Shown here one piece after another: positions 7,254 through 38,929 of a DNA stretch of 64,000 bases. The translations under genes were made by a program, and so were the position numbers. Source of the DNA: a virus (Duplodnaviria; Caudoviricetes); IMG/VR virus record IMGVR_UViG_3300021387_001157, positions 129,841-193,840 of that record; one strand, given 5' to 3'. Position 1 is the first letter of the stretch, and each line of letters starts with the position of its first letter. The notes beneath the pieces are model-generated. The model saw only the letters and a program-made list of their open reading frames with translations, was not told where the DNA came from and searched no databases.

Positions 7254-7778
7254 TTATTCAAAATATGCCATTGCTTCATAGTTAAATCCCACAAATGGAA
7301 TGTTGTAATCACACTGTGACTGAAGAATATCAACCCATTGTTCCATTGGAGTACCATCAAGAATCAACCTGTTGAGAGCGTCTCCGAAAATGATGTTCTG
7401 TCTATTAACCTCATCTTCTGTAGTATCAAATCCATATTCACAAGCCTCTTTAATGTTGGATATGAACATAGATGTGAAGAAACCGTGTAACCCGTATCTG
7501 TCTGCAAAGTTACCAGCGTAGCACCAGACTCCAATAATTCTTCTCTTTCTCAACATTTCAAGATGTGACCTATCGATGCAGTATCCGTTCCAATGTTGAT
7601 TTATCAAACCCAATTCAGTACCATGTCCAAACAGTAATAAATCATTAGAACTATTTCTTATAAGGTCTTTGATTTTATGTCCGCTTGGATTTACAAGAAG
7701 ATTTGTCTCCACATCAGATATTATATGAGTATAATATCCGGTATCTGGCATACTATCTATTACTATTGCATCTAACAT
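7254..7778 (-). CDS. hypothetical protein
   Basis: 174 aa ORF directly downstream of a promoter. Confidence 0.65.
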   Translation of the reverse strand: MLDAIVIDSMPDTGYYTHIISDVETNLLVNPSGHKIKDLIRNSSNDLLLFGHGTELGLINQHWNGYCIDRSHLEMLRKRRIIGVWCYAGNFADRYGLHGFFTSMFISNIKEACEYGFDTTEDEVNRQNIIFGDALNRLILDGTPMEQWVDILQSQCDYNIPFVGFNYEAMAYFE

Positions 7779-14906: not shown

Positions 14907-15560
14907 TTACCAATTGAAAGCATAACCAAATCTTTCGTCTGGACGATTTGGAACTGGATACACGGGGTTATACGATGAAACAGAACCATCAACAGAAGAT
15001 ACATATGCTTGTACGTCTTGATTTCCAAAGATGTATAAAGGTTCCTTTTCGATTTGACCAGATTCTTTACGAAGGACACAGTGTCTTGAATGTGGTTTTA
15101 CACAATTTGCTCTCATCATTGCATCATAGGCGTGTGCAAAATCAATTCCCATAGGGTTAAATTTGTTCATTGGTTCGTCACCAAGCCAAAGACTGCTCGG
15201 AATTGAGTCATAGATTGTCGAGTCTACAGTATGTGTTATCAAATATATATCCATATCTCCAGACATTGAATCGGGTGCAAACGTAACAACTGAGAATATG
15301 TTTGTAACACTTGCAATATCGAAAACATCAGAGGAATCAATCCAGTCCTTTGAATCAATACAGCACTCGAGCCAACGATAGTCTTTGAAATTTACAGTCA
15401 TATACTCATTGTCAAGCATAATTGCTTTTTCAACGTCGACACCGGTAACATTATATGTAAGTGTATCATTTTCACCATCATTCTCTTGATGGCAAGAACT
15501 GCAAGAAATCGTAAAGACGGTAAGAAAAACCATCATCATAACAGTAAAAATCTTTTTCAT
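14907..15560 (-). CDS. lipoprotein
   Basis: signal peptide with lipobox-like Cys (ISCSSC). Confidence 0.7.
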   Translation of the reverse strand: MKKIFTVMMMVFLTVFTISCSSCHQENDGENDTLTYNVTGVDVEKAIMLDNEYMTVNFKDYRWLECCIDSKDWIDSSDVFDIASVTNIFSVVTFAPDSMSGDMDIYLITHTVDSTIYDSIPSSLWLGDEPMNKFNPMGIDFAHAYDAMMRANCVKPHSRHCVLRKESGQIEKEPLYIFGNQDVQAYVSSVDGSVSSYNPVYPVPNRPDERFGYAFNW

Positions 15561-15685
15561 TTTTTGTGTATTTTTGTATATTATTATTTATTGTTTTGTA
15601 ATCTAAATATAACAAAAAAGGTGTGATTTTTCACACCTAGATACAAATCTGACTTGGTTTTTTCATATTGTTATATTTGATTTTG

Positions 15686-16056
15686 TGACACCGGTGGGAC
15701 TCGAACCCACGACCCCAGCATTAACTTACCACACTTGCTTTTATACAAGTCATCTCATTGAGACGTTGTAGTCTGGACTATTTCTTAACCATGCTTTACA
15801 GTTTAGGTCTCCACCTATATAGTCTCTACGCCATTTACACATTTCTGTGCTTTAGAGAGCCGTCGCCAAAGTCTATGTCACCATAGACGAGGTTTCCGTT
15901 TGTTAGGGTGGATTCTACATCCCGACAGCATTAATTGTCGTTTTCTCCTTTCAGAAAGGATGCACTCTTTTTTGATTATGTTCTTTTCCATAAACTTTGT
16001 TATGAAAAGCACAAATCAGTCAAAGTGCCGTGCTCTACCTACTGAGCTACGGTGTC
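15686..16056 (-). tRNA. tRNA-Lys(UUU) interrupted by a group I intron
   Basis: exons join to CGGCA-CTT|TTAA-TGCTG. Confidence 0.85.
15725..16022 (-). ncRNA. group I intron (298 nt) in tRNA-Lys(UUU)
   Basis: GAGACTA (R) and AAGAAATAGTCC (S) core elements; terminal G; 5' exon ends in U. Confidence 0.8.
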
Positions 16057-16376
16057 AAATTGACAGAAGTTCTTCAAGTTTTTCATTTTTTGTTCTGACT
16101 TGTGTCGACAAACTTGTGTATCGGTGAATACTTTCATTCGGCTCTGTCAAACCGTCCAAAAAAACTATCACAACTCTGGACTCTCTTCAGCATCCCTTTG
16201 AAGTCTTATGAGTCTTCGATTCTCGACAGGACACCACTCCCAAAGAAAGTGTTTTAGAGCTCATTATACACAATCTATCGAGGAAAAATCTGCTTCGGAT
16301 GCATCGTGGGTTATCCCCTACCACGGGTAGAATGTTTATCGTCTCACATACCATTGACGTTAGCGAAACTATTTTG

Positions 16377-16449
16377 CATGACTCGGGGACTCGAACCTCC
16401 ATCTCCACAGTTGGACCCGTGTTGTTCTACCGAATTAAACTATCGCCAC
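16377..16449 (-). tRNA. degenerate tRNA-like gene
   Basis: D and T arms present; 6-nt loop GTCCAA; mismatched acceptor stem. Confidence 0.5.
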
Positions 16450-16476
16450 TAGACGAGGTTTTGGACACCTCGTTTG

Positions 16477-16619
16477 TGATAATGGGTGGATTCGAACCAC
16501 CATAGCCAAGAGTCTTTTCGTCTCAGTCAAGTATAGACCATGCTATCGTGGATAGTCTATATGACCTTCAAACGATTACTAATTAATCTTGTAGCACATC
16601 CTATCTGCTTCACACTATC
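16477..16619 (-). ncRNA. tRNA-scaffold RNA with expanded anticodon domain
   Basis: acceptor GATAGTG/CATTATC; T arm GGTGG-TTCGAAT-CCACC; long structured middle. Confidence 0.6.
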
Positions 16620-16627
16620 ATATTTTG

Positions 16628-16766
16628 CAGGAGTGGGAGGATTCGAACCACCGTCTACGGTTTTGTGACTATATATCAATTTCTCAATATATAACCTAGA
16701 ATTAAAGGCTCTCACAGGACCTCACCCTGTATGGAGACCGTCATTCTGCCACTGAACTACACTCCT
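16628..16766 (-). tRNA. tRNA-Trp(CCA) with 68-nt insert in the anticodon loop (about 16664-16731)
   Basis: exons join to ACGGT-CTCCA|AA-ACCGT. Confidence 0.8.
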
Positions 16767-16773
16767 ATATTTG

Positions 16774-16880
16774 ATACGACACTGAGATTCGAACTCTAAA
16801 CCCCTTCACCCATTTAAGGGAGTTATCTGACCGTCGTCAGTCCCAGCATTGGGAGTGTGCTACTATTACACCATATCGTA
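16774..16880 (-). ncRNA. tRNA-scaffold RNA with branched anticodon domain
   Basis: acceptor TACGATA/TGTCGTA, D arm and T loop TTCGAAT; no canonical anticodon loop. Confidence 0.6.
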
Positions 16881-16886
16881 ATTTTG

Positions 16887-16960
16887 GGTGGTAAGTGAGA
16901 TTCGAACTCACACTTCCGGTTCCACAGACCGACGTGCTAACCATTAACACTATAACCACC
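16887..16960 (-). tRNA. tRNA-His(GUG)
   Basis: loop CT GTG GA; G-1:C73. Confidence 0.9.
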
Positions 16961-16970
16961 ATATTTTTTG

Positions 16971-17044
16971 TTGCCATGATGGGACTCGAACCCACGACCA
17001 CCTGCATATCCGGCAGGTGCTCTAACCGTCTGAGATACATGACA
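16971..17044 (-). tRNA. tRNA-Ile(GAU), atypical G33
   Basis: loop CG GAT AT. Confidence 0.75.
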
Positions 17045-17126
17045 GATGACATGCCAACAATGCATAAAATTAAGTCCTAATCAACCATCACGTGTTTTGG
17101 TTTTTCGAAAATAACCCGATACATCG

Positions 17127-17200
17127 TACCGTCGGGTGGATTTGAACCACCGAATGCAGCCTTATGAGAGCTGTGTCTTAGACCACTTGACGACGACGGC
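17127..17200 (-). tRNA. tRNA-Met/Ile2(CAU)
   Basis: loop CT CAT AA. Confidence 0.9.
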
Positions 17201-17208
17201 ATATAAAT

Positions 17209-17322
17209 TCAGACGATGAGACTTGAACCCATACTCCAATGCAGGAACCGGTTTTTCTTGGAAATTGCTGACTTATTCTTTACATTGACCAAGAATATCC
17301 CTAATTCGACCAGCGTGTCTAC
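17209..17322 (-). ncRNA. degenerate tRNA-like RNA carrying a variant stem+CAGCAA module
   Basis: T arm ATGGG-TTCAAGT-CTCAT; ATTCTTGG..AAAGAATAAGTCAGCAA. Confidence 0.45.
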
Positions 17323-17332
17323 CTTTCACTTG

Positions 17333-17406
17333 TACCCACGATGGGACTCGAACCCACAAATCCTACATCCTAAGTGTAGTGCCTATTCCAATTCGGCTAC
17401 GAGGGT
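17333..17406 (-). tRNA. tRNA-Leu(UAG) with short variable loop
   Basis: loop CT TAG GA; 5-nt variable region. Confidence 0.85.
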
Positions 17407-17416
17407 GTTTTATTAG

Positions 17417-17591
17417 TGGAGTTATGTGGATTCGAACTTCATCTTCCAAACATCCATCAATGTTCCTTTGACAAATGTAAGGTCTGATGAAGGGGGCAAA
17501 AGTTTTATAAAACCCCCACACACCCTCCTGTAACAAGTCTGTACACAACCATTACAGCCGGCTTCCAGCCCGTTTAAGAGAACTTAACCCC
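17417..17591 (-). ncRNA. Ala-acceptor (G3.U70) tRNA/tmRNA-like RNA, about 175 nt
   Basis: GGGGTTA/TAACTCC-A acceptor; TTCGAAT T loop. Confidence 0.55.
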
Positions 17592-17602
17592 GTTTTTTTT
17601 TG

Positions 17603-17674
17603 AGCAGGTGATGGTAATCGAAACCACATATCCAGCTTGGAAGGCTGGCATACTAACCATTGTACTACACCTGC
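17603..17674 (-). tRNA. tRNA-Gly(UCC)
   Basis: loop CT TCC AA. Confidence 0.9.
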
Positions 17675-17687
17675 TTGTTAAATATAC

Positions 17688-17829
17688 AAGAACCGACCGG
17701 ACTCGAACCTGCACTGACTGTCGTATTAAAACCTTTCGGTCTACCGTCCTACATTTACAAGGGACTCACCCCTTTCCAGTACTCATACAATTCGTGGCGA
17801 GAGTATACCAATTCCTCCTCACAGTCCTT
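17688..17829 (-). ncRNA. tRNA-scaffold RNA with multi-hairpin insert
   Basis: acceptor AGGACTG/CGGTTCT; D arm with TGG; T loop TTCGAGT. Confidence 0.6.
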
Positions 17830-17838
17830 GTCTATTTG

Positions 17839-17915
17839 TGTTGCTGGTTGGATTCGAACCAACGACCTTCTGTGTATCAGACAGATGCTCTAAAAACCAA
17901 CTGAGCTACAGCAAC
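17839..17915 (-). tRNA. tRNA-Ile(GAU)
   Basis: loop CT GAT AC. Confidence 0.9.
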
Positions 17916-17923
17916 ATATTCTG

Positions 17924-18100
17924 TGGTGAGGGTAGGATTCGAACCTACGAACTCCGAAGAGGGCAGATTGCTCTGTATGCCAGACTCGAACTGACTATTT
18001 ATGTTTATCATAAATTCTCCCGAATGAGTTTATACAGAGTTTGATTTTCAGTTTTCTCTGTATTACAGTCTGCTGCCATTAACCACTCGGCCACCTCACC
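17924..18100 (-). tRNA. tRNA-Tyr(GUA) with 94-nt anticodon-loop insert (about 17969-18062)
   Basis: exons join to GCAGA-CTGTAA|A-TCTGC; long variable arm. Confidence 0.85.
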
Positions 18101-18290
18101 AAATTTGCAAGCTACAAACGTTTTCTCGGAACTTAACTTGCTGTGTTGTACTTCCACAATAGTTTTGGGTGCTTTATCCTCACACCTCGTGGTTCTGATT
18201 TATCTAGTCAATTCAGAACAAACCCTGCTTTGCTCCGTTCCAATGCACTTATTGTCTTTGGCACTAGAATCGCTTAACAGTACAATCTTG

Positions 18291-18367
18291 TGCAGACAAT
18301 GGGACTCGAACCCATAACCACCCACCGGTTTAGAGCAGGCACTCTACCATCATTGAGTTATGTCCAC
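18291..18367 (-). tRNA. atypical tRNA, possible CUA (amber) anticodon
   Basis: good acceptor, D and T arms; CTCTAAA in an imperfect anticodon arm. Confidence 0.5.
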
Positions 18368-18372
18368 TTTTG

Positions 18373-18446
18373 TGGGACCGAGCCGATTTGAACGGATACC
18401 TCCAGATTTTCAGTCTGGCGTGACACACCAGTTACACCACAGTCCC
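18373..18446 (-). tRNA. tRNA-Phe(GAA)
   Basis: loop CT GAA AA. Confidence 0.85.
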
Positions 18447-18481
18447 AATTTGAGGTTTTTGATGAACCTCTTAACATTTTG

Positions 18482-18604
18482 TCGGGAGGGTGGGACTCGA
18501 ACCCACGACCACGGCTACCCAAAAGCTATTAGAAAAACGTTGCTGTTTGATTCTTTACCAAGAATCTATCATTTACGTGCTCTAACCAACTGAGCTACCT
18601 CCCG
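18482..18604 (-). tRNA. tRNA-Pro(UGG) with 49-nt insert in the anticodon stem (18527-18575)
   Basis: removing the insert gives CG|GCT-TTTGGGT-AGCCG. Confidence 0.8.
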
Positions 18605-18616
18605 TTCTTAAAAAAA

Positions 18617-18704
18617 GCAGACCCGCTTACCAACTACTTGACCGAGGGCTGTCTCCCCTTTCGAGGTGCCTTCGTTGGTGGACTTGAACCACTCCCATAT
18701 CTGC
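18617..18704 (-). ncRNA. circularly permuted tRNA-like (YrlA-like) RNA
   Basis: closing stem GCAGAT/GTCTGC; T arm first, then a hairpin, then D-loop-like AGTTGGTAA. Confidence 0.5.
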
Positions 18705-18709
18705 TATTG

Positions 18710-18784
18710 TGGGACCCCAGGGAGTTGAACCCCAGCCTCCGGATTTTCAGTCCGGCGTACAATTACCACCTATACGAGAGTCCC
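18710..18784 (-). tRNA. tRNA-Phe(GAA)
   Basis: loop CT GAA AA. Confidence 0.85.
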
Positions 18785-18907
18785 AAAAAAACGAGTATAT
18801 ACTTATGAATCCTCGTCATCCTATATACCCCACGACCAAACTAAACGTGTTGACCTGCTCCATAGTTTACTTAATGGCCTCCAGTATAAGCGAATGTACT
18901 CGTTTGT

Positions 18908-18978
18908 GAAATATGGTGGGACTTGAACCCACGGCCTCCCCCGGCGGGGGGTGCTCTACCAACTGAGCTACACAATCA
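18908..18978 (-). ncRNA. tRNA-like RNA with a 4-nt anticodon loop
   Basis: canonical D and T arms; CCCCC-CGCC-GGGGG arm. Confidence 0.65.
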
Positions 18979-19131
18979 CTTCCGAATCACATGGAAAATG
19001 GTTCTTTATAGTACCAATAACCTTGTTTCCACCAGTTAGGTCAGGAACATACCTCCGCCTATTTCTACCAAGACGGCTAATCCTCATCCTTTTATATCGC
19101 CCGACGAGGAACGGGCTATCACATGTGAGAG

Positions 19132-19205
19132 TGGACCACGATGGGATTCGAACCCACGACCCTCTGACTGCCAGTCAGATGCTCTACCGACTGAGCTACG
19201 AGCCC
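19132..19205 (-). tRNA. tRNA-Ala(GGC)
   Basis: loop CT GGC AG; G3.U70; 1-nt acceptor bulge. Confidence 0.85.
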
Positions 19206-19241
19206 ATGAAAATTGAGTTGTTTAAGGTCTAACTCAAGACT

Positions 19242-19523
19242 AACGACCGGGGCTGTCATCGATTCCACCATCCGATTTTATACGACATCGGAAAACGTTA
19301 GCGGAGAGAGTGGGACTCGAACCCACGACTACGGTCGTGACAGGACATTGAAGAACGTTGCTGTATGATTCTTTTTCAAGAATACTCTATTTACGTGTTC
19401 TACCAACTGAACTACCTCTCCATTTTGAGTTGTTTTAAGTCCAACCCAAACGACTGGGGCTTGCCGGTTTGAATCCGACGAGCGGTTCCACCATCCGATT
19501 TTATACGACATCGGAAAACGTTA
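19242..19523 (-). repeat. duplicated structured element (19242-19300 and about 19450-19523)
   Basis: AACGTTTTCCGATGTCGTATAAAATCGGATGGTGGAA..GCCCC.GTCGTT occurs twice. Confidence 0.75.
19302..19421 (-). tRNA. tRNA-Asp(GUC) with 47-nt insert in the anticodon stem (19347-19393)
   Basis: removing the insert gives CG|GTC-CTGTCAC-GACCG. Confidence 0.8.
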
Positions 19524-19566: not shown

Positions 19567-19865
19567 CTAATATCTTACATTTTGTTCGAGGTTCATAGAA
19601 CTTGCTACTGCTTGTTCTCCCACTCGCTTAAATTCGGGTGAACTCAACCCTATTATTCGTTTTCCTTCTTCTAGTATATTCTTTGCTGCGTTAATATCTC
19701 TGTCGTGTACAACACCACATTCAGGACAAAACCCACTCTCTATCAGAGAGTTGTAATAAGTCATTTTTATAACCACAGCAATAACATGTCTTTGATGAAG
19801 GATAAAATCTATCTATAAAGATTACTTTTTTATCATTCCAAGATGCTTTGTATTGAATTATTTGT
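19567..19865 (-). pseudogene. tnpB: TnpB (IS200/IS605/IS607) C-terminal remnant, frameshifted
   Basis: YKASW..IDRFYPSSKTCYCCG then frameshift to CPECGVVHDRDINAAKNI. Confidence 0.8.
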
Positions 19866-20500: not shown

Positions 20501-21037
20501 TTATTTATGTAAATTAATTTCATATGGTTTTATTGAGCGTTTAACTCTTGCACCACTTCCATATATAAGACTATCTGCAAGTGTATTTCCGACTTCTGGA
20601 AGACCATTACGTCTTTTGTTGTTTAACTGGTCAGTATCTGGTTTCAATTCCTTTATTTTTATAACCACAGAATATACAACCACTTTATCATATGGATAAC
20701 CAAACTCTCCGAAAGTTTTTGCAAAATCTGGATAAACAGAAAGATATACATATCCACATTCAGACTGAAAACTTTTTTTCCTTTTTAGACTTGTGGTTAA
20801 AATACCCTTATCCATTATAGGATTTTTTTCACTTGTACCATGATAAAGTCTTATATAGTCTTCCTTGTGTCTTCTCAACCATTTGTTAAACTCATCAACA
20901 AGTTTTTCGTTATATTCACCATTAAATGAAGTGAAGAACTTAGAAGTTTCCTCATCATCTAATACATCGTATGTCTTTGGCTCTCTATAACTACCATAGT
21001 ATAATTCATTAATAAATTCATCAAACTTTTTAATCAT
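20501..21037 (-). CDS. putative ADP-ribosyltransferase-fold protein with capsid-targeting-like N-terminus
   Basis: LYHGTS and GYVYLS motifs; starts MIKKFDEFINE. Confidence 0.55.
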   Translation of the reverse strand: MIKKFDEFINELYYGSYREPKTYDVLDDEETSKFFTSFNGEYNEKLVDEFNKWLRRHKEDYIRLYHGTSEKNPIMDKGILTTSLKRKKSFQSECGYVYLSVYPDFAKTFGEFGYPYDKVVVYSVVIKIKELKPDTDQLNNKRRNGLPEVGNTLADSLIYGSGARVKRSIKPYEINLHK

Positions 21038-22164: not shown

Positions 22165-23000
22165 AGTGAGCAATGAGCAGTCTCCCACTCAAAACCCAAT
22201 TTCCTCTTTTGGAAAGCCTGAGAACTTAGGCAAAGTTGTCACCATTACACGACAGTTGGACATCGTTGTTCACAGTATGTATTTCTACATCCTAGGTGAC
22301 ATGTGCTCCAGTTTTGTGAAAACTGACAAACTCTTACTGCTTGATATCGTAGATTTCCGTTCTCCACCGACCGTCTTGCATAAGACTTCTGAAGATGCCT
22401 CCTCATTGTTCGATGATTACTTGTACTTTCTTGTCTTCAACCTTGCAAGTCTCCGACACCCCCGTGTTACAGAGGGACAAGCACATTTTCTACCAAACAG
22501 TGTCGTGCTCTTTTGCTTTTCTTTCAACATTTTTACCCTAATAAATAATTGAATCTTAGCTTTTTTTGATAACTGTTTTTAGAAAGATGTGGCACGACTT
22601 TGGTCATTCCTACCTTTTGAGTAAGACCCAACCAACACCTTTCTATGTTTCATCGTTCCCCAACGACTCCACATTCTCCGTTTCATCCCATACAATTTCT
22701 CACACAGAACTAATCCTTTGTAATACTTGCAATTGACAGGGAAATCTTTCACAAGTACCTGCTAAAGACCTCTATTGTACTTTCATACTCAAACCAGGTT
22801 TTACCCGATTGTCATCTACTTCATCCTCATCATTTGACATTGGATTTCCCACAGATAACGTGTCTTTTCACTTTTCAACAGATTGCATCTTTCGATACAA
22901 CGCCACATCCCGTTTATCTCGGATATGACTTTATCCCATTGCTGGATTATCCTTTTGTCAAGTCCGAAGACTCAACACGGTTCTGAAAGCGAACCTTTTT
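22165..23000 (-). ncRNA. large structured RNA, GOLLD-like (about 830 nt)
   Basis: no credible ORF; many hairpins; GTCGTGC/GCACGAC long-range pair; directly 3' of tRNA-fMet. Confidence 0.55.
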
Positions 23001-25284: not shown

Positions 25285-25402
25285 CAGGGTGGGTAGGATT
25301 CGAACCTACGTCACGGCTACCAAAAAGCAAAGAAAACGTATTGCTGTAAGATTCTTTCACAAGAATCAAAAATACGTGTCCTAACCACTAGACGACCACC
25401 CA
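25285..25402 (-). tRNA. tRNA-Gln(UUG) with 46-nt insert in the anticodon stem (25329-25374)
   Basis: removing the insert gives CG|GCT-TTTTGGT-AGCCG. Confidence 0.8.
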
Positions 25403-26409: not shown

Positions 26410-26421
26410 GATTATGTTTTG

Positions 26422-27042
26422 TACTCCGAGTGGGACTTGAACCCACACGCCCTTTCGGGCAAGGGATTTTCTTACTACACTATGTTACCATAGCACAAAC
26501 AAACGTTCTTGATACCTCAATGCCGTCCCTTGTTGAACTATTATGGACAGTTTCCATATTTTGTTTGTTTGTAGTCTCGACTATGTTATAACCATATTGA
26601 AATTCTTGCAAGATATACACTACTTAGACATCTATTGTTTAATTAGACATATCTTTATTAGAGTTAATTACTCTCTGTAGGAATTGCCATATACTCCAAG
26701 TGTTCTGTTCGTTAGTATAAATTTCAACTTAGGCTGCACCTCTATAGTCTGTACACGTTTATGAAGGAAAAGATGTAAAATCTTTTTGTAGATTAACCTT
26801 CAATTTAGCTCGGCGTTGTCCTACACATTATTGATTAGTGGTCTCACGCCCATGTTTTACGCTTTGACATGTAGTACAAGACCGGAGTTTAACCGGATAT
26901 CCCTCATAAAGAGGGTTAGACAAATCTCTTCAGGTACATAATCAAGGTTTTTCACCGAATTAGGGTGCTTCTAACAAGGACTTTCGTGCCTTGTCACTCA
27001 AATTTCTTAAGTCCCTCGTGTCTACCATTCCACCACCGGAGC
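26422..27042 (-). tRNA. tRNA-Leu(UAA) interrupted by a group I intron
   Basis: exons join to AGGGA-CTT|AAAA-TCCCT; long variable arm. Confidence 0.9.
26471..27008 (-). ncRNA. group I intron (538 nt) in tRNA-Leu(UAA)
   Basis: P1 ACTT/GAGT with U.G pair; CAGACTA and ATAGTC P7 elements; terminal G. Confidence 0.85.
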
Positions 27043-30043: not shown

Positions 30044-30331
30044 TTAAATTGAAATATTGATATTTTCTGGAAGTTCAAGAACACAATAACCTAATATTTC
30101 AGTATTATCCCATTCATTTTCTAAAAAATAGTTATGTGCAAATATTGTAATAGATGGATATATAGAAACATATATAATACGTTCTTTTTCCTCCAAAATC
30201 TTATTCCCATAATAGTCAAATTTTTTTTCCTTAATGTGACAAAGGAAATATTTTCCTTTGTCACGTAGGAAATTTATAGTCTCATTATTTACTCGTTTAG
30301 GTTTTTCAAAATATTCAAATTCAACTTTCAC
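30044..30331 (-). CDS. hypothetical protein
   Basis: ORF. Confidence 0.55.
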   Translation of the reverse strand: MKVEFEYFEKPKRVNNETINFLRDKGKYFLCHIKEKKFDYYGNKILEEKERIIYVSIYPSITIFAHNYFLENEWDNTEILGYCVLELPENINISI

Positions 30332-31757
30332 TTTTCTTAGATTTTAATACGTTCTTATATGCTTGCCTCATCAACTTCAAACAACTCTCACGAGTGATGT
30401 CTGGGTTGTTGTAGGCGTTACTCATAACCTGCTTTAAAATATCCTTGATGATAGGACCAGGTTCAACCCCAAGTTCATTGATGACATCATCACCGTTTAT
30501 CGGAAGTCTGTATCCGAACATCTTTGAAGTCTTTGCACACTCGACGAAACGTGTATATTGACCGGTTATGCAGTGACTCTTTTCGTGAGCGAGATTGTCT
30601 GCCTCGATGACTTGACAAGTTCTCAGAAAACGTTCCTCTGTACCACAGATGTACATAAATTTGTTGATTGACTTTTCCTTCATCTTACGGCAGTCGTTTT
30701 CAAACCCCTTTGCCCTCATATGGTTTCTAATGATGAAACACACTTCGTCAATGGTTTTGTTGTCAAACTTCAAACGTTGGAGTATTCTCTTTGCAACATC
30801 ACTACCGACAAGCTCGTGGTCGTAAAAATGAACTTTACCGTGTTCATCAACAGTTCTGCACTCTATCTTACCAATATCGTGGAGTAATGCACCGAGACGA
30901 CAAATCAAATCCGGTTCAAAGAGGTCACAGTCGTTCTTCAGAACGGCGAGGGTATGAACCCAGACATCACCGAAGTGATATGCATTTTGACCAAGACCGA
31001 TAGTCTGTTCAAGTTCAGGAATGACATACTTCATTGCACCGATGTCGTTGATGAGCATTATCCCATGATGAGCATTTTTTGTCATAAGGATTTTGCAAAG
31101 TTCATCGTTGATTCTCTCGACGGTGATGATAGAAAGTCTGTCGGCATTTCTCTTCATTGCATTGAAAGTCTCATCTGAAATCTTGAAACCAAACTTTGTA
31201 TGAAAACGGACAACCCTCAAAATTCTCAAAGGGTCGTCAATGAAAGTCTGGTCGACCATCTGTTCCGACACCATTTCCATAGGTACTCTCAAAACACCGT
31301 TGTGAATGTCTTTGATACCACTACCAGTCAAGTCCTCAACCTTCTTTTTCGAAATATTGTAGTAGAGAGCGTTTATGGTGAGGTCTCTACGACTTGCATC
31401 CTCACTCAACGGTGCAAATACAGTCTGTGGGTTACGGCTGCCGGCATCGGTGTATTTCTCACCACGAGTCATTACACACTCTATTTCGTCATCCGGAAAT
31501 TTATTGAAATGGAACATTGCTGTCCCGTATGTCTCGTATACAACAACTGTTTTTGTAAAACCGTTGTCTTTACACCAGTTTGCAAACCTCACACCACCTT
31601 GTGGAAGGTCTATAACGAGGTCAATATCCTTGATTTCTTTTTCCATAATCAAATCTCTCACGGAACCTCCGACGGCGAAAACGTGTCCCTCGAACTCACT
31701 CCCTTTGGTGATTTCATCAATATATGATGTTATTTCTAAAAATTTTTCTTTTGTCAT
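30321..31757 (-). CDS. cca: CCA tRNA nucleotidyltransferase with HD domain
   Basis: VGGSVRD..DIDL, RRDLTINAL, DDPLRILR, LLHDIGK. Confidence 0.92.
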   Translation of the reverse strand: MTKEKFLEITSYIDEITKGSEFEGHVFAVGGSVRDLIMEKEIKDIDLVIDLPQGGVRFANWCKDNGFTKTVVVYETYGTAMFHFNKFPDDEIECVMTRGEKYTDAGSRNPQTVFAPLSEDASRRDLTINALYYNISKKKVEDLTGSGIKDIHNGVLRVPMEMVSEQMVDQTFIDDPLRILRVVRFHTKFGFKISDETFNAMKRNADRLSIITVERINDELCKILMTKNAHHGIMLINDIGAMKYVIPELEQTIGLGQNAYHFGDVWVHTLAVLKNDCDLFEPDLICRLGALLHDIGKIECRTVDEHGKVHFYDHELVGSDVAKRILQRLKFDNKTIDEVCFIIRNHMRAKGFENDCRKMKEKSINKFMYICGTEERFLRTCQVIEADNLAHEKSHCITGQYTRFVECAKTSKMFGYRLPINGDDVINELGVEPGPIIKDILKQVMSNAYNNPDITRESCLKLMRQAYKNVLKSKKSES

Positions 31758-32445: not shown

Positions 32446-32670
32446 TTAGTCGTTCTTTAATAGTTCAACAATTTCTTCATCTGTATGCCACACACCGTTG
32501 AACGGTTTGAGTTCGGATTCAGTTCCGTTCTCAATGGCATCCATAAGTTTCAACACCTCGTTGTAGCAACGTGAACAAACCGAACATGTTCCGGATGAAC
32601 CACGATGGTTGAGACACTCTTTGTTTTGTTCTTGGATTTTACTCCTTAATGTTTCCCATTTTCCGTCCAT
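32446..32670 (-). CDS. hypothetical protein
   Basis: ORF. Confidence 0.5.
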   Translation of the reverse strand: MDGKWETLRSKIQEQNKECLNHRGSSGTCSVCSRCYNEVLKLMDAIENGTESELKPFNGVWHTDEEIVELLKND

Positions 32671-33323
32671 AATTGTGCTTTCTTCCAGTTCCTTGTCCAG
32701 TGCTCATCAGTCTGAACGTGATTTGCTCTTACGTATTTACAAACATAATTTGAAAATTCCATAATCGGAAACGAGTCTGTAATCCTCATCACAACACCCT
32801 CACGACCGCTTTTACAAGCATAGTATGATGTGTGTTCCATCAATTCGTCGATGATTTCCTTCACTTCACCCTCTTCTCTCAACACACACCTCTCCAATTC
32901 CGGAACGTGTGGGACACAGAGTATCTTTGCAAACTCCTTAACCTCATCCCAACTGTACCACAGATTACCGTCATTGACAGCGAACATATGCCAATAGTCT
33001 GACAGACAATCGTAATGGATAGAGTGCTCACCGTAAAGGTTCTCACCATAGATGGTTTCGTTTGGACCAATATACTGCTTAATTTTCCAATACAACCCAT
33101 CATACGAGTCCCAAAGGTTTCTTGACCAAGGAGACCTTGTTGGAGCACCGTGAGACCTTGCATACACATCATAATGTGTCATTGCTGTGTTTTCACCATC
33201 CAACTTCTCAGTGAATACAACCTCTTTTCCTTTATAGAAATCGAACCAACCGTCTTGAAGTTTTTTGTCGTCAGATGTTGCACCTGGTGACCAAGGAAGA
33301 TGGTATGTTCTTGGGTATTTCAT
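32646..33323 (-). CDS. ATP-dependent RNA ligase family protein
   Basis: YPRTYHLPWSPG; TEKLDGEN (motif I); GEN; EGVV; K.VR. Confidence 0.85.
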   Translation of the reverse strand: MKYPRTYHLPWSPGATSDDKKLQDGWFDFYKGKEVVFTEKLDGENTAMTHYDVYARSHGAPTRSPWSRNLWDSYDGLYWKIKQYIGPNETIYGENLYGEHSIHYDCLSDYWHMFAVNDGNLWYSWDEVKEFAKILCVPHVPELERCVLREEGEVKEIIDELMEHTSYYACKSGREGVVMRITDSFPIMEFSNYVCKYVRANHVQTDEHWTRNWKKAQLWTENGKH

Positions 33324-34225: not shown

Positions 34226-34648
34226 TCATCTTTTTGTATTTTTAAAGTTAAACTTGACGTAACCAGACAAGGTTATAACCGGCATCTCTTTCCAATCTTT
34301 GATGTTGTTTGAATCAACCGGTTTCCCACCGTTGTCCGGATTTGTCATAACAGTGATGTGTTTAATTTCATTTGCACAAGGAATGTCTGTTTCGAGTTTC
34401 ACGGCAAACGCTTTATCAGAAACACCGTATTCGTATGCAAACACACGAAACATCTTTCCCTCATTTTCCATACACCAATCAAGTATTTCGTCAATCATAT
34501 TTGTATGAAAGGCGATTGTGTGATGTTCGGCAATGATTCTACCGTTTTCCCACTTTGGTGCAAACTTCATCACCTCATCCAACAACAATCTCTTTGATTC
34601 CTCAGTGAGGACAAGAGATGTATACAATAAGTTATTCATGTGCAGCAA
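34226..34648 (-). CDS. 2H phosphoesterase (cyclic phosphodiesterase, Trl1-CPD-like)
   Basis: two HxT motifs (HHTI, HITV); GKPVDSN. Confidence 0.75.
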   Translation of the reverse strand: MLHMNNLLYTSLVLTEESKRLLLDEVMKFAPKWENGRIIAEHHTIAFHTNMIDEILDWCMENEGKMFRVFAYEYGVSDKAFAVKLETDIPCANEIKHITVMTNPDNGGKPVDSNNIKDWKEMPVITLSGYVKFNFKNTKR

Positions 34649-35862: not shown

Positions 35863-37440
35863 TTAAGAATCTTCATCATCAACTCCGTTGGCGGCATAGT
35901 ATTCATCCATTTCGGCATAGGTGAGTTGAGTTTCCATATCGACCTCACCAGCATCATACTGCTTTCTTTCTCTTATTCTGAATGCTTCTGTCTTCAGTTT
36001 AAAAGCTTCTGCCTTTTCGTCATTTTCTATACGGATGACGACACCTTCACGTGGAACACATTTATTACACATCGGTTCGTTCATCTCCATACCGAATCTT
36101 TGTTTGTCGTTTTCAAGTCGTTCAAGCAACGATTCTTGCCAGTGATGTTCTGTGTCGAGGTCTGGATAAAGGTCTCCTAGACGACCATGATAAAGGATTG
36201 TGATTGGCTTTATTTTACCTTTCAACTCGGGATGTTCATTCAAAATATTTATTGTCCATTGATAAACATCCTGTACATTCCAATCAACATGGTTTCCTTC
36301 GGCATCAGTTTCGGTTATTCTGTAAGGCATCAAGATGTTCTCACCGATTTTACAACCGTAGTCGTAACCCTTCTGAATCATACTTGTTGTACCGGTAACA
36401 TAACCGACAATCTCACCATACAATGTCATACCTTCATTCAAAAGTGGATAAATAATCTTTCCGTACTCTGACCAAATATCGACCTTGTAGAAACCCTTTC
36501 CAACTTCTTTATTGATGTACTTGTTCTTTATAACACCTCTTGAAGACGTTATTTCACCATACTTAACAACAAATTCTGGAAGTAATCTCTCTCTTCTCTT
36601 GTGGTCTATTGAACTCATAGTTCTTCTGATGAAGTTTCTGATTTCCCTGACAGATTTCTTCATGAAACTCTCATCAAGGTATTTCTTTGTGAGAACATTA
36701 CCACATATGAATGATGTTCCATGCTCCTTAACAGAGATATCAACAACTGTGTCAGGATTGAATTTCCAGAGATTATCCTTCAACAATTTTGTGTCGTAGT
36801 GGAAAGCAAACTGACCATCTACCATACGGTCGAGTTTCATCATAGTCTTTCCTCTCTTTCGGTCTTTCTTAGAAACTCCTGTCGGATTGTTTTGACGGTG
36901 CTGAACTGGTGGAATGTATGCCTTTATGAAAAGAATACCATCAACGGTGTCAAAATCAAATGGGACAACAATTCCATCTTCATTTGGTTCGAAACACTTC
37001 TCAAAATCATAGTCCAACACCTTTGGATTCCACTTAGCAAGAGAATCGATTGAGAAAAGACATCCTTCAGATGTACACCCACGAAGTTTGACCATCTTCA
37101 CACGACCGTGTTTGTTGAAATATCCAACCATCTTCTTAGCTTCGGATTCCTTGCCTTCATCAATGAGTTTCTGAACTTCCTCATAGTTTTTGTTGAGATG
37201 TCTTTCACTCATTTCAAACTGGTTGTTGACAGACAGGAAATCCTTGTTGATGGCGGTCTCCATCTTACAATAGACCATGATGTCACCTTCCTTTACACTA
37301 TCCTTTCCGACAACGACTTGGTATGCACCTCCAATTTTTGTTTTGACGAGAAAATCAGAACCCTCAATTGGAAGCAACTCACCAATCTTTACAATTTGAG
37401 CACAATACTCCGGTTTTATTTTTTCACTTTTTGTAAACAT
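35863..37440 (-). CDS. RNA ligase (DRB0094/Rnl2-like, N-terminal OB domain)
   Basis: PIEGSDFL OB segment; KEHGTS, LYGEIVG, EGVV, FKLK. Confidence 0.8.
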   Translation of the reverse strand: MFTKSEKIKPEYCAQIVKIGELLPIEGSDFLVKTKIGGAYQVVVGKDSVKEGDIMVYCKMETAINKDFLSVNNQFEMSERHLNKNYEEVQKLIDEGKESEAKKMVGYFNKHGRVKMVKLRGCTSEGCLFSIDSLAKWNPKVLDYDFEKCFEPNEDGIVVPFDFDTVDGILFIKAYIPPVQHRQNNPTGVSKKDRKRGKTMMKLDRMVDGQFAFHYDTKLLKDNLWKFNPDTVVDISVKEHGTSFICGNVLTKKYLDESFMKKSVREIRNFIRRTMSSIDHKRRERLLPEFVVKYGEITSSRGVIKNKYINKEVGKGFYKVDIWSEYGKIIYPLLNEGMTLYGEIVGYVTGTTSMIQKGYDYGCKIGENILMPYRITETDAEGNHVDWNVQDVYQWTINILNEHPELKGKIKPITILYHGRLGDLYPDLDTEHHWQESLLERLENDKQRFGMEMNEPMCNKCVPREGVVIRIENDEKAEAFKLKTEAFRIRERKQYDAGEVDMETQLTYAEMDEYYAANGVDDEDS

Positions 37441-37716: not shown

Positions 37717-38351
37717 TTACTTTATTTTCTCACAAGCCTTGTTCCGGAAGATGTCACAAAGTTCCCAATACGAGATTGGTCTATATCCATTTTGGTCAAC
37801 TCCGACATCATACTGGTTCTTTCTTAGACGTGACGGAACATCACCGTCTATTCCGTAACAAGTACCGTCGCTCAAAGTATGAATGTGACCGAACACTTGG
37901 AAATCACCATTGAAAGCACAGCATGGATAGTGTTCACCATAAATCTTAACACCATCTACCATAATGAACGCCTTGTCAACAACGGCAATGAGATTCTCCT
38001 GTGGTTCCGTGCATAATGATATATAGTCATGGTTTCCTCTAATTAAGAGAATATTTCCAGTTAACTTTTTCATATATCTTAAATATGCATTCGTATCGAC
38101 TTTATGGTTCAACATAAAGTCTCCACAATGAATTACTATACCGTCTTCCGGAACAACAGAATTCCAATTCTCTATGAGAGTTTTGTCCATTTCTGACCTT
38201 GAATTAAATGGTCTGTGACAATACTTACAGATATTAAAATGTCCAAAATGAGTTAGGTGTCCGAGGTAAAATACAACTTATTTGGGTCATTTACACCCAA
38301 TGTGTATATACCTCGGAAATTGTTTGCTTCAATTGTTAAATTGTTTGTCAT
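37717..38351 (-). CDS. calcineurin-like metallophosphoesterase, interrupted by 5 nt (38251-38255)
   Basis: LYFTSDT*[ct]HFGH, HCGDF, RGNHD, FGHIH, DVGVD. Confidence 0.75.
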
Positions 38352-38392: not shown

Positions 38393-38929
38393 TTAAGTTG
38401 CATGACTCTCGATATAAGTTTTATATTTCTTGTATGTATCTCTTATCACATTCTCACCAACTGGATGCTCCCTCTTGGAATCACGCTCAATACACACCTC
38501 GAGTGGTGTGTAAATGAACCGATACTCAACGGCATATCCATACTCACGAGCCATCTTCTCAAGACCCTTTCTGATTTTGGAGTTGAGGTTCATGTTATCA
38601 GACACAACATCTTTTCCACTTTTGAATGCAGCGGTTAAAGCAGCATTTTCAATCTTTGTGACAATGTTTTCGAGATTTGGGTTAAACGGTTTTCCCATCA
38701 TCAATCGAATTTCATCACGATTGACACGGATACGATTGTCGGGGTCTTCAAGGACAAACTTACGAGCAGCAGTAGACTTACCACTTCCCTGCAATCCTTG
38801 ATATATATAGAATGTCTTTTTTTTATTCATTGAAGTCTTCTTATTCTTTAATTTGAATATCCAATCCAACAAATAAATTACCAAAAATAAAATGCATAAT
38901 ATTATTGCAATAACTAAATAAAACATCAT
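38393..38929 (-). CDS. polynucleotide kinase-like P-loop kinase (AAA_33)
   Basis: GLQGSGKST, RVNRDEIR, DNMNL, CIERDSKR. Confidence 0.85.
   Translation of the reverse strand: MMFYLVIAIILCILFLVIYLLDWIFKLKNKKTSMNKKKTFYIYQGLQGSGKSTAARKFVLEDPDNRIRVNRDEIRLMMGKPFNPNLENIVTKIENAALTAAFKSGKDVVSDNMNLNSKIRKGLEKMAREYGYAVEYRFIYTPLEVCIERDSKREHPVGENVIRDTYKKYKTYIESHAT

Follow-up and report, generated by a model that had tools for sequence, protein, structure and literature searches.

A short structured insert within the anticodon of a tRNA-Trp gene in a giant rumen phage

The tRNA-Trp locus

The DNA analysed here (the window) is the final 64 kb of IMG/VR record IMGVR_UViG_3300021387_001157 (G000), a record of 193,840 nucleotides (nt) from a giant rumen phage with a minus-strand array of >30 tRNA genes and a permuted transfer-messenger RNA (tmRNA) at ~14.8 to 29.7 kb. 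The record is 67% complete by CheckV, and absences given below for the whole record cover that part of the genome. Within the array lies a tRNA-Trp(CCA) gene with a 68-nt insert in the anticodon loop. The insert is also present in two other records: G001 (IMGVR_UViG_3300028833_000064), which shares synteny with the window, the DNA being 84-98% (about 90%) identical, and G002 (IMGVR_UViG_3300028048_000083), a distant relative whose sole protein shared near its array is 42% identical. The same block is missing from the tRNA-Trp gene of three related assemblies (L091, L092 and L093). The parts of the gene, in window coordinates, are as follows.

16628-16766 (-): tRNA-Trp(CCA) gene with insert (Rfam RF00005, 50.4 bits; ARAGORN -i on the whole record)
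16733-16766 (-): 5' exon, 34 nt, last base C35 in the 35/36 reading, possibly ending 1 nt earlier (sequence; G002 homologue; intron-less alleles)
16665-16732 (-): candidate intron, 68 nt, AUACAGGG...GUCAC; in the 34/35 reading the block moves 1 nt toward the 5' end of the gene (block missing exactly in L091/L092/L093; single copy)
16628-16664 (-): 3' exon, 37 nt, AAAACCGU...CACUCCUG (sequence, Rfam alignment)
16713-16731 (-): 5' hairpin of the insert (HP1), UACAGGG / UCCUGUG with loop UGAGG, starting 1 nt past the 5' boundary (folds; CAGGG/UCCUG kept in G002; UACA-hairpin start in Lak phage introns)
16697-16712 (-): linker, 16 nt, AGAGCCUUUAAUUCUA, ending in a UUUAAUU-type A/U motif (alignment; Lak linker UUAAAUYAA)
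16667-16696 (-): 3' hairpin of the insert (HP3), a 13-bp helix with GNRA loop GAAA (pairing compared across three homologues)
16665-16666 (-): invariant AC tail between HP3 and exon 2, giving with exon 2 helix-A-C-A-A-A-A, which fits the tRNA 3'-end/trailer consensus N73(A)-C74-A-A-A-A

RF00005 matches the gene over model positions 1-71 (50.4 bits; E 2e-8 in 16.5 kb, 6.8e-10 in 551 nt), with a 72-nt unaligned block standing in place of four consensus anticodon-loop positions. ARAGORN, with introns allowed, calls a tRNA-Trp(CCA) with a 68-nt intron, and this is the sole tRNA-Trp that it finds in the record. The joined exons form a normal cloverleaf (acceptor AGGAGUG/CACUCCU, D stem GUUC/GAAU, anticodon stem ACGGU/ACCGU) with the anticodon loop CUCCAAA, and the only flaw in the G000 exons is a U-U mismatch in the T stem. 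These results bear out the first-pass annotation of this DNA, which had described a tRNA-Trp with a 68-nt anticodon-loop insert between intact halves.

From the window alone the boundary has three possible placements, 34/35, 35/36 and 36/37, much as the first-pass annotation had noted when it let the boundary slide. That freedom is reduced by G002, where the insert opens with G, not A, which excludes 36/37. The base after CUCC in G002 is G; therefore A36 of the anticodon is supplied by exon 2 and the insert is at 34/35 or 35/36. Read in this way from the sequence, the insert is inside the anticodon, not just 3' of it. No boundary option gives an insert that ends in G or is preceded by U.

Structure and conservation of the insert

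The insert of G002 occupies the same place in the gene and is 66 nt long, beginning GUACAGGG and ending UUUGAC. G000, G001 and G002 share one plan, consisting of a UACAG hairpin, a GAGAG/UUAAAU linker, a 13-bp GNRA hairpin and the dinucleotide AC. Further elements kept in the alignment are UACAGGGUG, GAGAG and a CUU(U/A)AAU motif.

HP3 is a continuous helix, GGUUAUAUAUUGA-GAAA-UUGAUAUAUAGUC, ending 2 nt before exon 2. Two hairpins had been described in the insert before; both exist, but the one given as 'TATATA' is the core of this longer 13-bp helix. Across the three homologues, 13/13, 11/13 and 13/13 of the stacked positions are standard pairs, and 8/13 pairs are altered on both sides between G000 and G002. 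The loops read GAAA, GAGA and GAGA, and the AC tail is invariant.

Sense-strand folds of the three inserts have energies of -15.5, -17.5 and -17.0 kcal/mol (z -1.6, -2.2, -3.1), while antisense folds reach -8.4 and -9.3 kcal/mol (z -0.55, -1.7), the G000 pair being -15.5 in sense against -8.4 in antisense. The helices include several G-U pairs. A strand-specific fold with G-U pairs, as modelled here, fits a role at the RNA level.

The linker together with G20 (16713, the final base of HP1) reads GAGAGCC... and can pair with exon bases G29-C34. Pairing of exon GGUCUC with the linker (GAGAGCC or GAGGCU) is predicted in all three homologues, and the 5' boundary would then sit in a small bulge beside HP1. 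The data are consistent with such pairing; the exon is invariant, hence covariation gives no proof of it. A pseudoknot in which GUGA of the HP1 loop would pair with UCAC of the 3' tail was also considered and rejected, as a change in G001 breaks the pairing with no compensation.

The exons are conserved alongside the insert. Five differences separate the exons of G000 and G001, each of them in a loop or yielding a G-U pair, and the T stem of G002 has a compensatory change (GGUGG/CCUCC vs GUUGG/CCAGC). Decay of the exons in relatives, which had been put forward as evidence that would speak against splicing, was not seen: they are intact in all three intron-bearing homologues.

The insert has a narrow distribution. 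Searches of IMG/VR and JGI metagenomes with exon and intron patterns yielded, besides G001 and G002, only unrelated Trp genes without an intron, and no homologue of the Trp insert was found in GenBank phages. A scan of IMG/VR for the insert motifs gave the Trp loci, one chance match and nothing else, and a scan of GTDB genomes gave only chance matches among the matches listed (120).

Intron-less alleles and the joined junction

Relatives fetched via a neighbouring protein, the ENA metagenome assemblies L091, L092 and L093, have the local order His, tRNA-like RNA, Trp and a second tRNA-like RNA, and their flanks align closely with the window. The 68-nt block, no more and no less, is missing from their Trp gene. 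Of the G002 lineage, three contigs have the insert and two (L103 and L105) do not, the exons of L105 being identical to those of the intron-plus allele. The insert is present as a single copy in G000. In both lineages it thus behaves as a discrete block of DNA that may be present or absent.

Intron-plus and intron-minus alleles of the G000 lineage have T arms that differ at three positions, which could be a co-conversion tract or linked variation. The intron-plus T arm is GGUGGUUCGAAUCCUCC and the expected spliced junction is CUCCAAAACCGU. The junction joined to the intron-plus T arm would read GGTCTCCAAAACCGTAGA(C/T)GGTGGTTCGAATCCTCC, and the known intron-less DNA alleles of the lineage have GGAGGTTCGAGTCCTTC.

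The mature junction was looked for in four public sequencing runs (X1, X2, X3 and X12), aligned to 16300-19500. Run X2 skips exactly 68 nt in the Trp gene (joining 16663 to 16732) and exactly 94 nt in the tRNA-Tyr gene described below. X2 is filed as metatranscriptomic whole-genome shotgun sequencing but was rated as probably DNA, with even cover and a joined contig that runs ~190 nt past the 3' end of the tRNA. In the runs on record as RNA (X1, X3 and X12) the gene has no read cover, and they are thus uninformative. The X2 junction was not counted as splicing because the same exact junction stands in the DNA assemblies of the relatives; it probably derives from an intron-less DNA strain and not from RNA splicing. 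The mature junction proposed by the first-pass annotation as a check on splicing is therefore present in one run, but it is no proof that splicing occurs.

Tests for known intron and ribozyme classes

Group I introns have a catalytic core (P3-P9) that usually takes up at least 200 nt; their exon 1 has a terminal U, which takes part in the U-G pair of P1, and G is the last base of the intron. At 66-68 nt the Trp insert has no room for such a core and none was found, exon 1 ends in C (or A), and the insert ends in C or A in all three homologues. RF00028, the group I family, has no match in the record at E 0.001 or better, and no Rfam intron or ribozyme family matches 16350-16900 at E up to 10. 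The earlier view that the insert is not of group I type thus stands. Use of a group I core in trans was rejected as well, as the cleavage site lacks a U-G and the long inserts of the tRNA-Lys and tRNA-Leu genes are themselves unconfirmed as group I.

These long inserts are a 298-nt insert in tRNA-Lys(UUU), at 15685-16056 (-), and a 538-nt insert in tRNA-Leu(UAA), at 26421-27042 (-), both reported by ARAGORN. As read from the sequence the Lys insert follows U and ends in G in group I fashion; RF00028 has no match here at E 0.001 or better. In relatives L091-L093 the Lys insert is 326 nt.

The known small self-cleaving ribozymes (hammerhead, twister, pistol, hatchet, hairpin and hepatitis delta virus (HDV)-like) give no covariance match in 16350-16900 at E up to 10. 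The bulge-helix-bulge (BHB) motif of archaeal and eukaryal tRNA introns holds both splice sites in a pair of 3-nt bulges on either side of a 4-bp helix; folds of the three homologues give at most one bulge, at the 5' site, and the 3' site is single-stranded after HP3. Neither PF01974 (EndA), for which only archaeal controls were positive, nor RtcB is present in the phage record. A hairpin-ended DNA element, either IS200/IS605-derived or a miniature inverted-repeat transposable element (MITE), would be expected in several copies with a common short target at different sites; the insert is a single copy in G000, and the IMG/VR motif scan finds no scattered copies. Cutting of the MazF type at ACA/UACA was also rejected, since the exons would rebuild neither the 7-nt loop nor, in G002, the CCA anticodon.

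Relationship to the short tRNA introns of Lak phages

'Enigmatic' tRNA introns for which no mechanism was proposed have been described in Lak megaphages (Devoto et al., 2019; PMC6784885, Table S6, Fig. 4). Found in the tRNAs for Tyr, Phe, Thr and Gly, they measure 79-114 nt and have neither an open reading frame (ORF) nor an Rfam match (PMC6784885). Their plan comprises (N)UACA with a short hairpin, a UUAAAUYAA-type linker, a tRNA-like domain in which an acceptor-like stem and a T arm stack to 12-13 bp, and a tail of 1-2 nt (..C, CA), followed by an exon 2 that starts AA. The introns begin UACAGG in Tyr, UACAAG in Gly, UACAAU in Thr and UAACAG in Phe, and their linkers are of the UUAAAU type. 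The Trp introns begin AUACAGGG.. and GUACAGGG.. and have linkers ..CUUUAAUUCUA and ..CUUAAAUCAA, and so have both the Lak opening and the A/U linker.

The two groups also have in common that they are found in large phages of gut or rumen Bacteroidota, that the insert is an ORF-less one in the anticodon loop without an Rfam family, and that it is present or absent between related genomes which are otherwise near-identical. At the 3' end, HP3-AC|AAAA of the three Trp homologues compares with ..GC(A)|A(A) and an exon 2 starting AA in Lak. However, Lak introns carry a tRNA-like domain with a UUCGA T loop where the Trp insert (66-68 nt) has a plain 13-bp GNRA hairpin, the Trp insertion site is inside the anticodon, and no Trp intron is listed for Lak, whose Trp gene is intron-less. 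Because the embedded tRNA-like domain with its T arm is replaced by a plain hairpin, we file the Trp insert, on its sequence features, as an apparent reduced variant of the Lak-type short tRNA introns and not as a typical member.

A second insert in the window itself also follows the Lak plan.

17924-18100 (-): tRNA-Tyr(GUA) gene with a 94-nt insert of the same plan, namely UACAG hairpin, acceptor + T-arm-like stack, C/CA, then AA (Rfam, 45.3 bits)

The likeness of the Trp to the Tyr insert seen by the first-pass annotation extends beyond their start: both have an N-UACAG hairpin, a 13-layer helix, 1-2 nt and an exon starting AA. The Tyr gene is intron-less in L091 and G002. The first-pass annotation also drew the ATACAGCAA module into this kinship, which finds no support here; the motif is internal to that module, which sits at 28/29 in extra tRNA copies. 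These are extra copies of tRNA-Pro, Asp and Gln (18482-18604, 19302-19421 and 25285-25402, all (-)) sharing a 46-49-nt module (hairpin + ACAGCAA) at that position, and intact Pro, Asp and Gln genes occur elsewhere in the array, unlike for Trp and Tyr.

An unrelated phage, IMGVR_UViG_3300026549_000056, has a tRNA-Trp (L084 235-316 (+)) with a ~62-nt cloverleaf-shaped insert in the same place of the anticodon loop. This insert has a closing stem AGUCCUU/AAGGAUU, three hairpins and a tail GUUA, and thus a different member of the short introns makes use of the same tRNA-Trp site.

Comparison with other known systems

The Trp insert shares with the group I introns of tRNA-Leu(UAA) and tRNA-fMet a place within or next to the anticodon, an optional presence between strains and a gene that stays functional, but it lacks the catalytic core, the terminal G, the U ending exon 1 and a match to RF00028. 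Archaeal and eukaryal tRNA introns (EndA/TSEN with RtcB or Trl1) are likewise short and non-catalytic, with protein-dependent removal as the probable route for both. A set of predicted activities resembling that of Trl1 (ligase, kinase and a 2H-like esterase) is encoded by the phage as separate proteins. The insert differs from the EndA/TSEN introns in having no BHB, in its position and in its bacterial host, and the phage record is without EndA. Repair of PrrC breaks by polynucleotide kinase (PNK) and Rnl1 of phage T4, in which a phage ligase and healing enzymes reseal an anticodon loop, corresponds to the ligation step assumed below; there, however, the host attacks and breaks an uninterrupted tRNA, and nothing is removed.

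The 3' junction and a possible processing route

None of the tRNA genes of G000 encodes CCA (0/34). In their 3' flanks, N73 is A in 21/34, position 74 is C in 32/34 and position 75 is A in 27/34, and A continues at 76 (28/34), 77 (20/34) and 78 (21/34). The array of G002 (L090) has C74 in 20/22, A75 in 18/22 and A76 in 20/22; the figures are 32/33, 22/33 and 26/33 for the intron-less relative L091 and 17/18, 12/18 and 15/18 for Lak-A1 (L115). A near-invariant C74 without C75-A76 is unusual. The tRNA leaders favour U at -1 and have the consensus A-W-A-U|G.

The 3' junction of the Trp insert, helix-A-C-A-A-A-A in all three homologues, is this phage tRNA 3'-end consensus. To judge from the sequence, it looks like the top half of a tRNA followed by discriminator and trailer. 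The resemblance to the acceptor/T-arm minihelix substrates of RNase P and RNase Z lies in the ~13 bp of HP3, the unpaired A and the C-A-A-A that follows, which match a tRNA top half in size and 3' context; HP3 differs in having no T loop and a 5' flank off the leader consensus, and the likeness is one of sequence.

The 3' ends of CCA-less tRNA genes are made by an RNase Z-type enzyme. RNase Z leaves a 5'-phosphate on the downstream piece, and an ATP-dependent ligase needs exactly such an end. On this basis we propose a route in which the pre-tRNA would be spliced by proteins, not by itself. HP3 with A-C-A-A-A-A would imitate the acceptor/T-arm stack, discriminator and trailer of the phage tRNAs, and through this mimicry a tRNA 3'-end nuclease of the host (RNase Z-type) would cut the junction between intron and exon 2. 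A second cut would fall one base before the UACA hairpin, with RNase P or a phage nuclease as candidates. The anticodon loop would then be resealed by one of the ATP-dependent RNA ligases of the phage, with a kinase and phosphoesterases healing the ends if needed.

A cut after position 74 gives the 35/36 boundary for Trp and 36/37 for the Tyr gene of the window, and the Gly, Thr and Phe introns of Lak phages agree with such a cut. Cutting after N73 would place the Trp boundary at 34/35, and the data do not separate the two. The 5' cut would be one base before UACA in most members of the short-intron family. As a side point, the Lak-A1 'Tyr' gene (L115 8975-9139) has a short variable loop, and its published assignment rests on the fixed 37/38 position used by tRNAscan; under the cut rule given here (1 base before UACA, after 74) its spliced anticodon would, speculatively, be GUU (Asn), not GUA.

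RNA-repair and tRNA-maturation genes

Genes for several activities that such a route would draw on lie beside the tRNA array.

30321-31757 (-): CCA-adding enzyme with HD domain (Pfam PF01743, PF12627, PF01966)
32646-33323 (-): ATP-dependent RNA ligase (Rnl2-like), candidate sealing enzyme (PF09414, 88 bits; phrog_24030 RNA ligase)
34226-34648 (-): small protein with two H-x-T motifs, candidate cyclic phosphodiesterase (CPD) (weak 2H / tRNA-ligase CPD match to PF08302, E 5e-4, below cut-off)
35863-37440 (-): second RNA-ligase-like protein, 525 amino acids (aa) (phrog_968 RNA ligase, E 4e-37; PF21189 OB domain)
37717-38190 (-): calcineurin-like phosphoesterase, candidate for 3'-end healing (PF00149 / PF12850)
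38393-38929 (-): P-loop kinase of polynucleotide-kinase type, candidate for 5'-end healing (PF13671, 61.6 bits; weak match to the kinase part of TIGR04075, bacterial Pnkp)

As predicted from the sequence, this repair module would show capacity, not use. An ORF in the middle of the array, 20501-21037 (-) (178 aa), was considered as a Tpt1-like 2'-phosphotransferase and rejected: it has no Pfam or PDB sequence match, and a single-sequence model reached a predicted local distance difference test (pLDDT) value of 33. Its domain occurs in hundreds of proteins, including giants of 2,000-7,000 aa, and its Atlas neighbourhood consists of ADP-ribosyltransferases (Arr, DarT/PARP; score 0.90).

Other features around the array

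Three tRNA-shaped RNAs flank the Trp gene (16377-16449, 16477-16547 and 16774-16880 (-)). They have acceptor and T arms and no usable anticodon arm, and all three are conserved in G001 and L091-L093. Rfam scores for the two at 16377-16449 and 16477-16547 are 16-18 bits, and in the one at 16774-16880 there are GGGUGAAGGGG and CUUAAAU motifs reminiscent of the Trp insert. Upstream of the Trp gene (16767), G001 and L091-L093 have ~90-100 nt after the tRNA-like RNA, a stretch that G000 is without.

A 69-aa ORF within the array, 19567-19776 (-), ends in ..CPECGVVHDRDINAAKNILEEG and resembles the C-terminal zinc-ribbon/RuvC part of TnpB; by this resemblance it is probably the remnant of an IS605-type element. 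A full TnpB-like gene is present in the related contig L108. Also inside the array, GOLLD RNA (RF02032) has a full-length match at 22215-22643 (-), which scores 77.8 bits (E 5e-19) and so falls short of the gathering score of 150. The tRNA at 18290-18367 (-), which has the anticodon CUA and is labelled 'Pyl' by ARAGORN, is also found in G002 and L091. It is a possible amber suppressor and as such hints at TAG read-through or recoding as in Lak phages. A lipoprotein-like ORF at 14907-15560 is present in G000 and absent from G001, with no relatives in IMG/VR, and the contigs reached via homologues of ORF 7254-7778 have no tRNA arrays on them.

Weighing the explanations

Taken together, the data suggest at roughly even odds (a probability of about 0.5) that the Trp insert is a genuine, ORF-less structured intron, optional in DNA and removed by proteins. 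The specific route set out above, with a tRNA-3'-end mimic cut by a tRNA nuclease, a second cut before UACA and ligation by phage enzymes, is a tentative proposal that we hold to be possible but doubtful. Equal reserve applies to the idea that it would make a third way of splicing tRNA, beside self-splicing and the BHB endonuclease.

Several observations weigh against removal by proteins or against this route to it. The 5' flank of HP3 (...UCUA|G, ...UCAA|C) is off the leader consensus A-W-A-U|G, as is the 5' cut site, for which no enzyme can be named. No RNase Z-like or RNase P gene is present in the phage record, and the host would therefore need to supply both. The sole joined form comes from a run rated as probably DNA, and intron-less DNA alleles exist. 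Such alleles coexist with intron-plus ones and can recombine with them, which makes exon conservation weaker as evidence of function; recombination between co-infecting phages of the two kinds would be enough for spread or loss of the insert. Jumbo phages commonly carry RNA repair modules for counter-defence (PMC7824862), and such modules need not have a part in splicing.

The U-U mismatch of the T stem also counts here, being confined to the intron-plus alleles G000 and G001 and missing from the intron-less allele of the lineage. It would be expected if the insert were selfish DNA that never leaves the RNA, leaving a dead tRNA-Trp gene and a phage that uses host tRNA, with the hairpins serving a DNA movement mobilised in trans. 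Exact presence and absence among near-identical strains in two lineages is what a mobile element predicts, IS605-type TnpB remnants or copies occur in this phage group (ORF 19567-19776; the gene in L108), and the sole joined form is that of run X2, rated as probably DNA. Transposons scatter, however, whereas each genome has only one copy of this insert, invariably in one position of one tRNA. Its G-U-dependent helices fold far better on the tRNA-sense strand and its GNRA loop is kept, the exons are intact in three diverged intron-plus alleles, and the 3' junction copies an RNA processing signal. A whole Lak-type family that sits in anticodon loops, with intact exons and tRNA-like domains, suits RNA processing and not DNA transposition. 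On balance we think selfish insertion unlikely.

The insert-bearing RNA might instead be the functional product without ever decoding, for example by sequestering, as decoy or sponge, an anticodon nuclease of the host or another tRNA-binding factor. The conserved architecture of the insert would suit this, and the same array holds tRNA-scaffold RNAs without a usable anticodon arm (16377-16449, 16477-16547) as well as the three extra tRNA copies with an anticodon-stem module. Those copies are accompanied by intact genes for Pro, Asp and Gln, and no intact second gene exists for Trp. Removal of the block restores a perfect CUCCAAA loop, the intron-less allele occupies the same locus so that the two forms look interchangeable, and the anticodon bases on both sides of the insert are kept in a distant lineage; a non-decoding role is therefore quite improbable in our judgement. 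Two precise cuts and a ligation would be required of the insert and anticodon arm if they formed a new small self-cleaving or self-splicing RNA, which is a lot to ask of 66-68 nt that are mostly simple hairpins, with no guanosine-binding core, terminal G or U-G at the 5' boundary and no Rfam ribozyme match at E up to 10. In Lak introns a tRNA-like domain takes the place of HP3, which argues for recognition by tRNA enzymes rather than for a catalytic core. What speaks for a ribozyme is that motifs are conserved beyond the needs of the helices (UACAGGGUG, GAGAG, the GNRA loop and the AC tail) and that the predicted pairing of GGUCUC with the linker puts the 5' boundary in a small bulge by HP1 in three homologues, but this explanation has only a very slight probability. 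A BHB intron of the archaeal or eukaryal type, cut by an EndA-like enzyme and joined by RtcB, is the least probable of all and can practically be set aside. The 5' boundary can sit in a 3-nt bulge between two helices and RtcB is present in Bacteroidota (a control genome), but there is no second bulge 4 bp away, the short helix does not have its partner strand at the 3' end of the intron, the position is 34/35-35/36 and not 37/38, and the phage record has neither an EndA domain nor RtcB. We know of no EndA in bacteria.

Implications for tRNA splicing in phages

To our knowledge, the textbook view is that introns in the tRNA genes of bacteria and their viruses are only self-splicing. Short non-catalytic tRNA introns of phages were reported once, in 2019, and left unexplained. 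The Trp case adds a minimal member of this class, with a defined architecture and with exact boundaries given by natural intron-less alleles in two lineages. It also gives a clue to mechanism, in that its 3' splice junction appears to be a copy of the 3'-end processing signal of the phage tRNAs. If the proposed reading is true, protein-dependent tRNA splicing would exist in the bacterial world, built from ordinary enzymes of tRNA maturation and RNA repair. This would explain the ligase and healing modules that jumbo phages keep beside their tRNA arrays, and the Trp intron, as the minimal form of the design, would reveal its essential parts.

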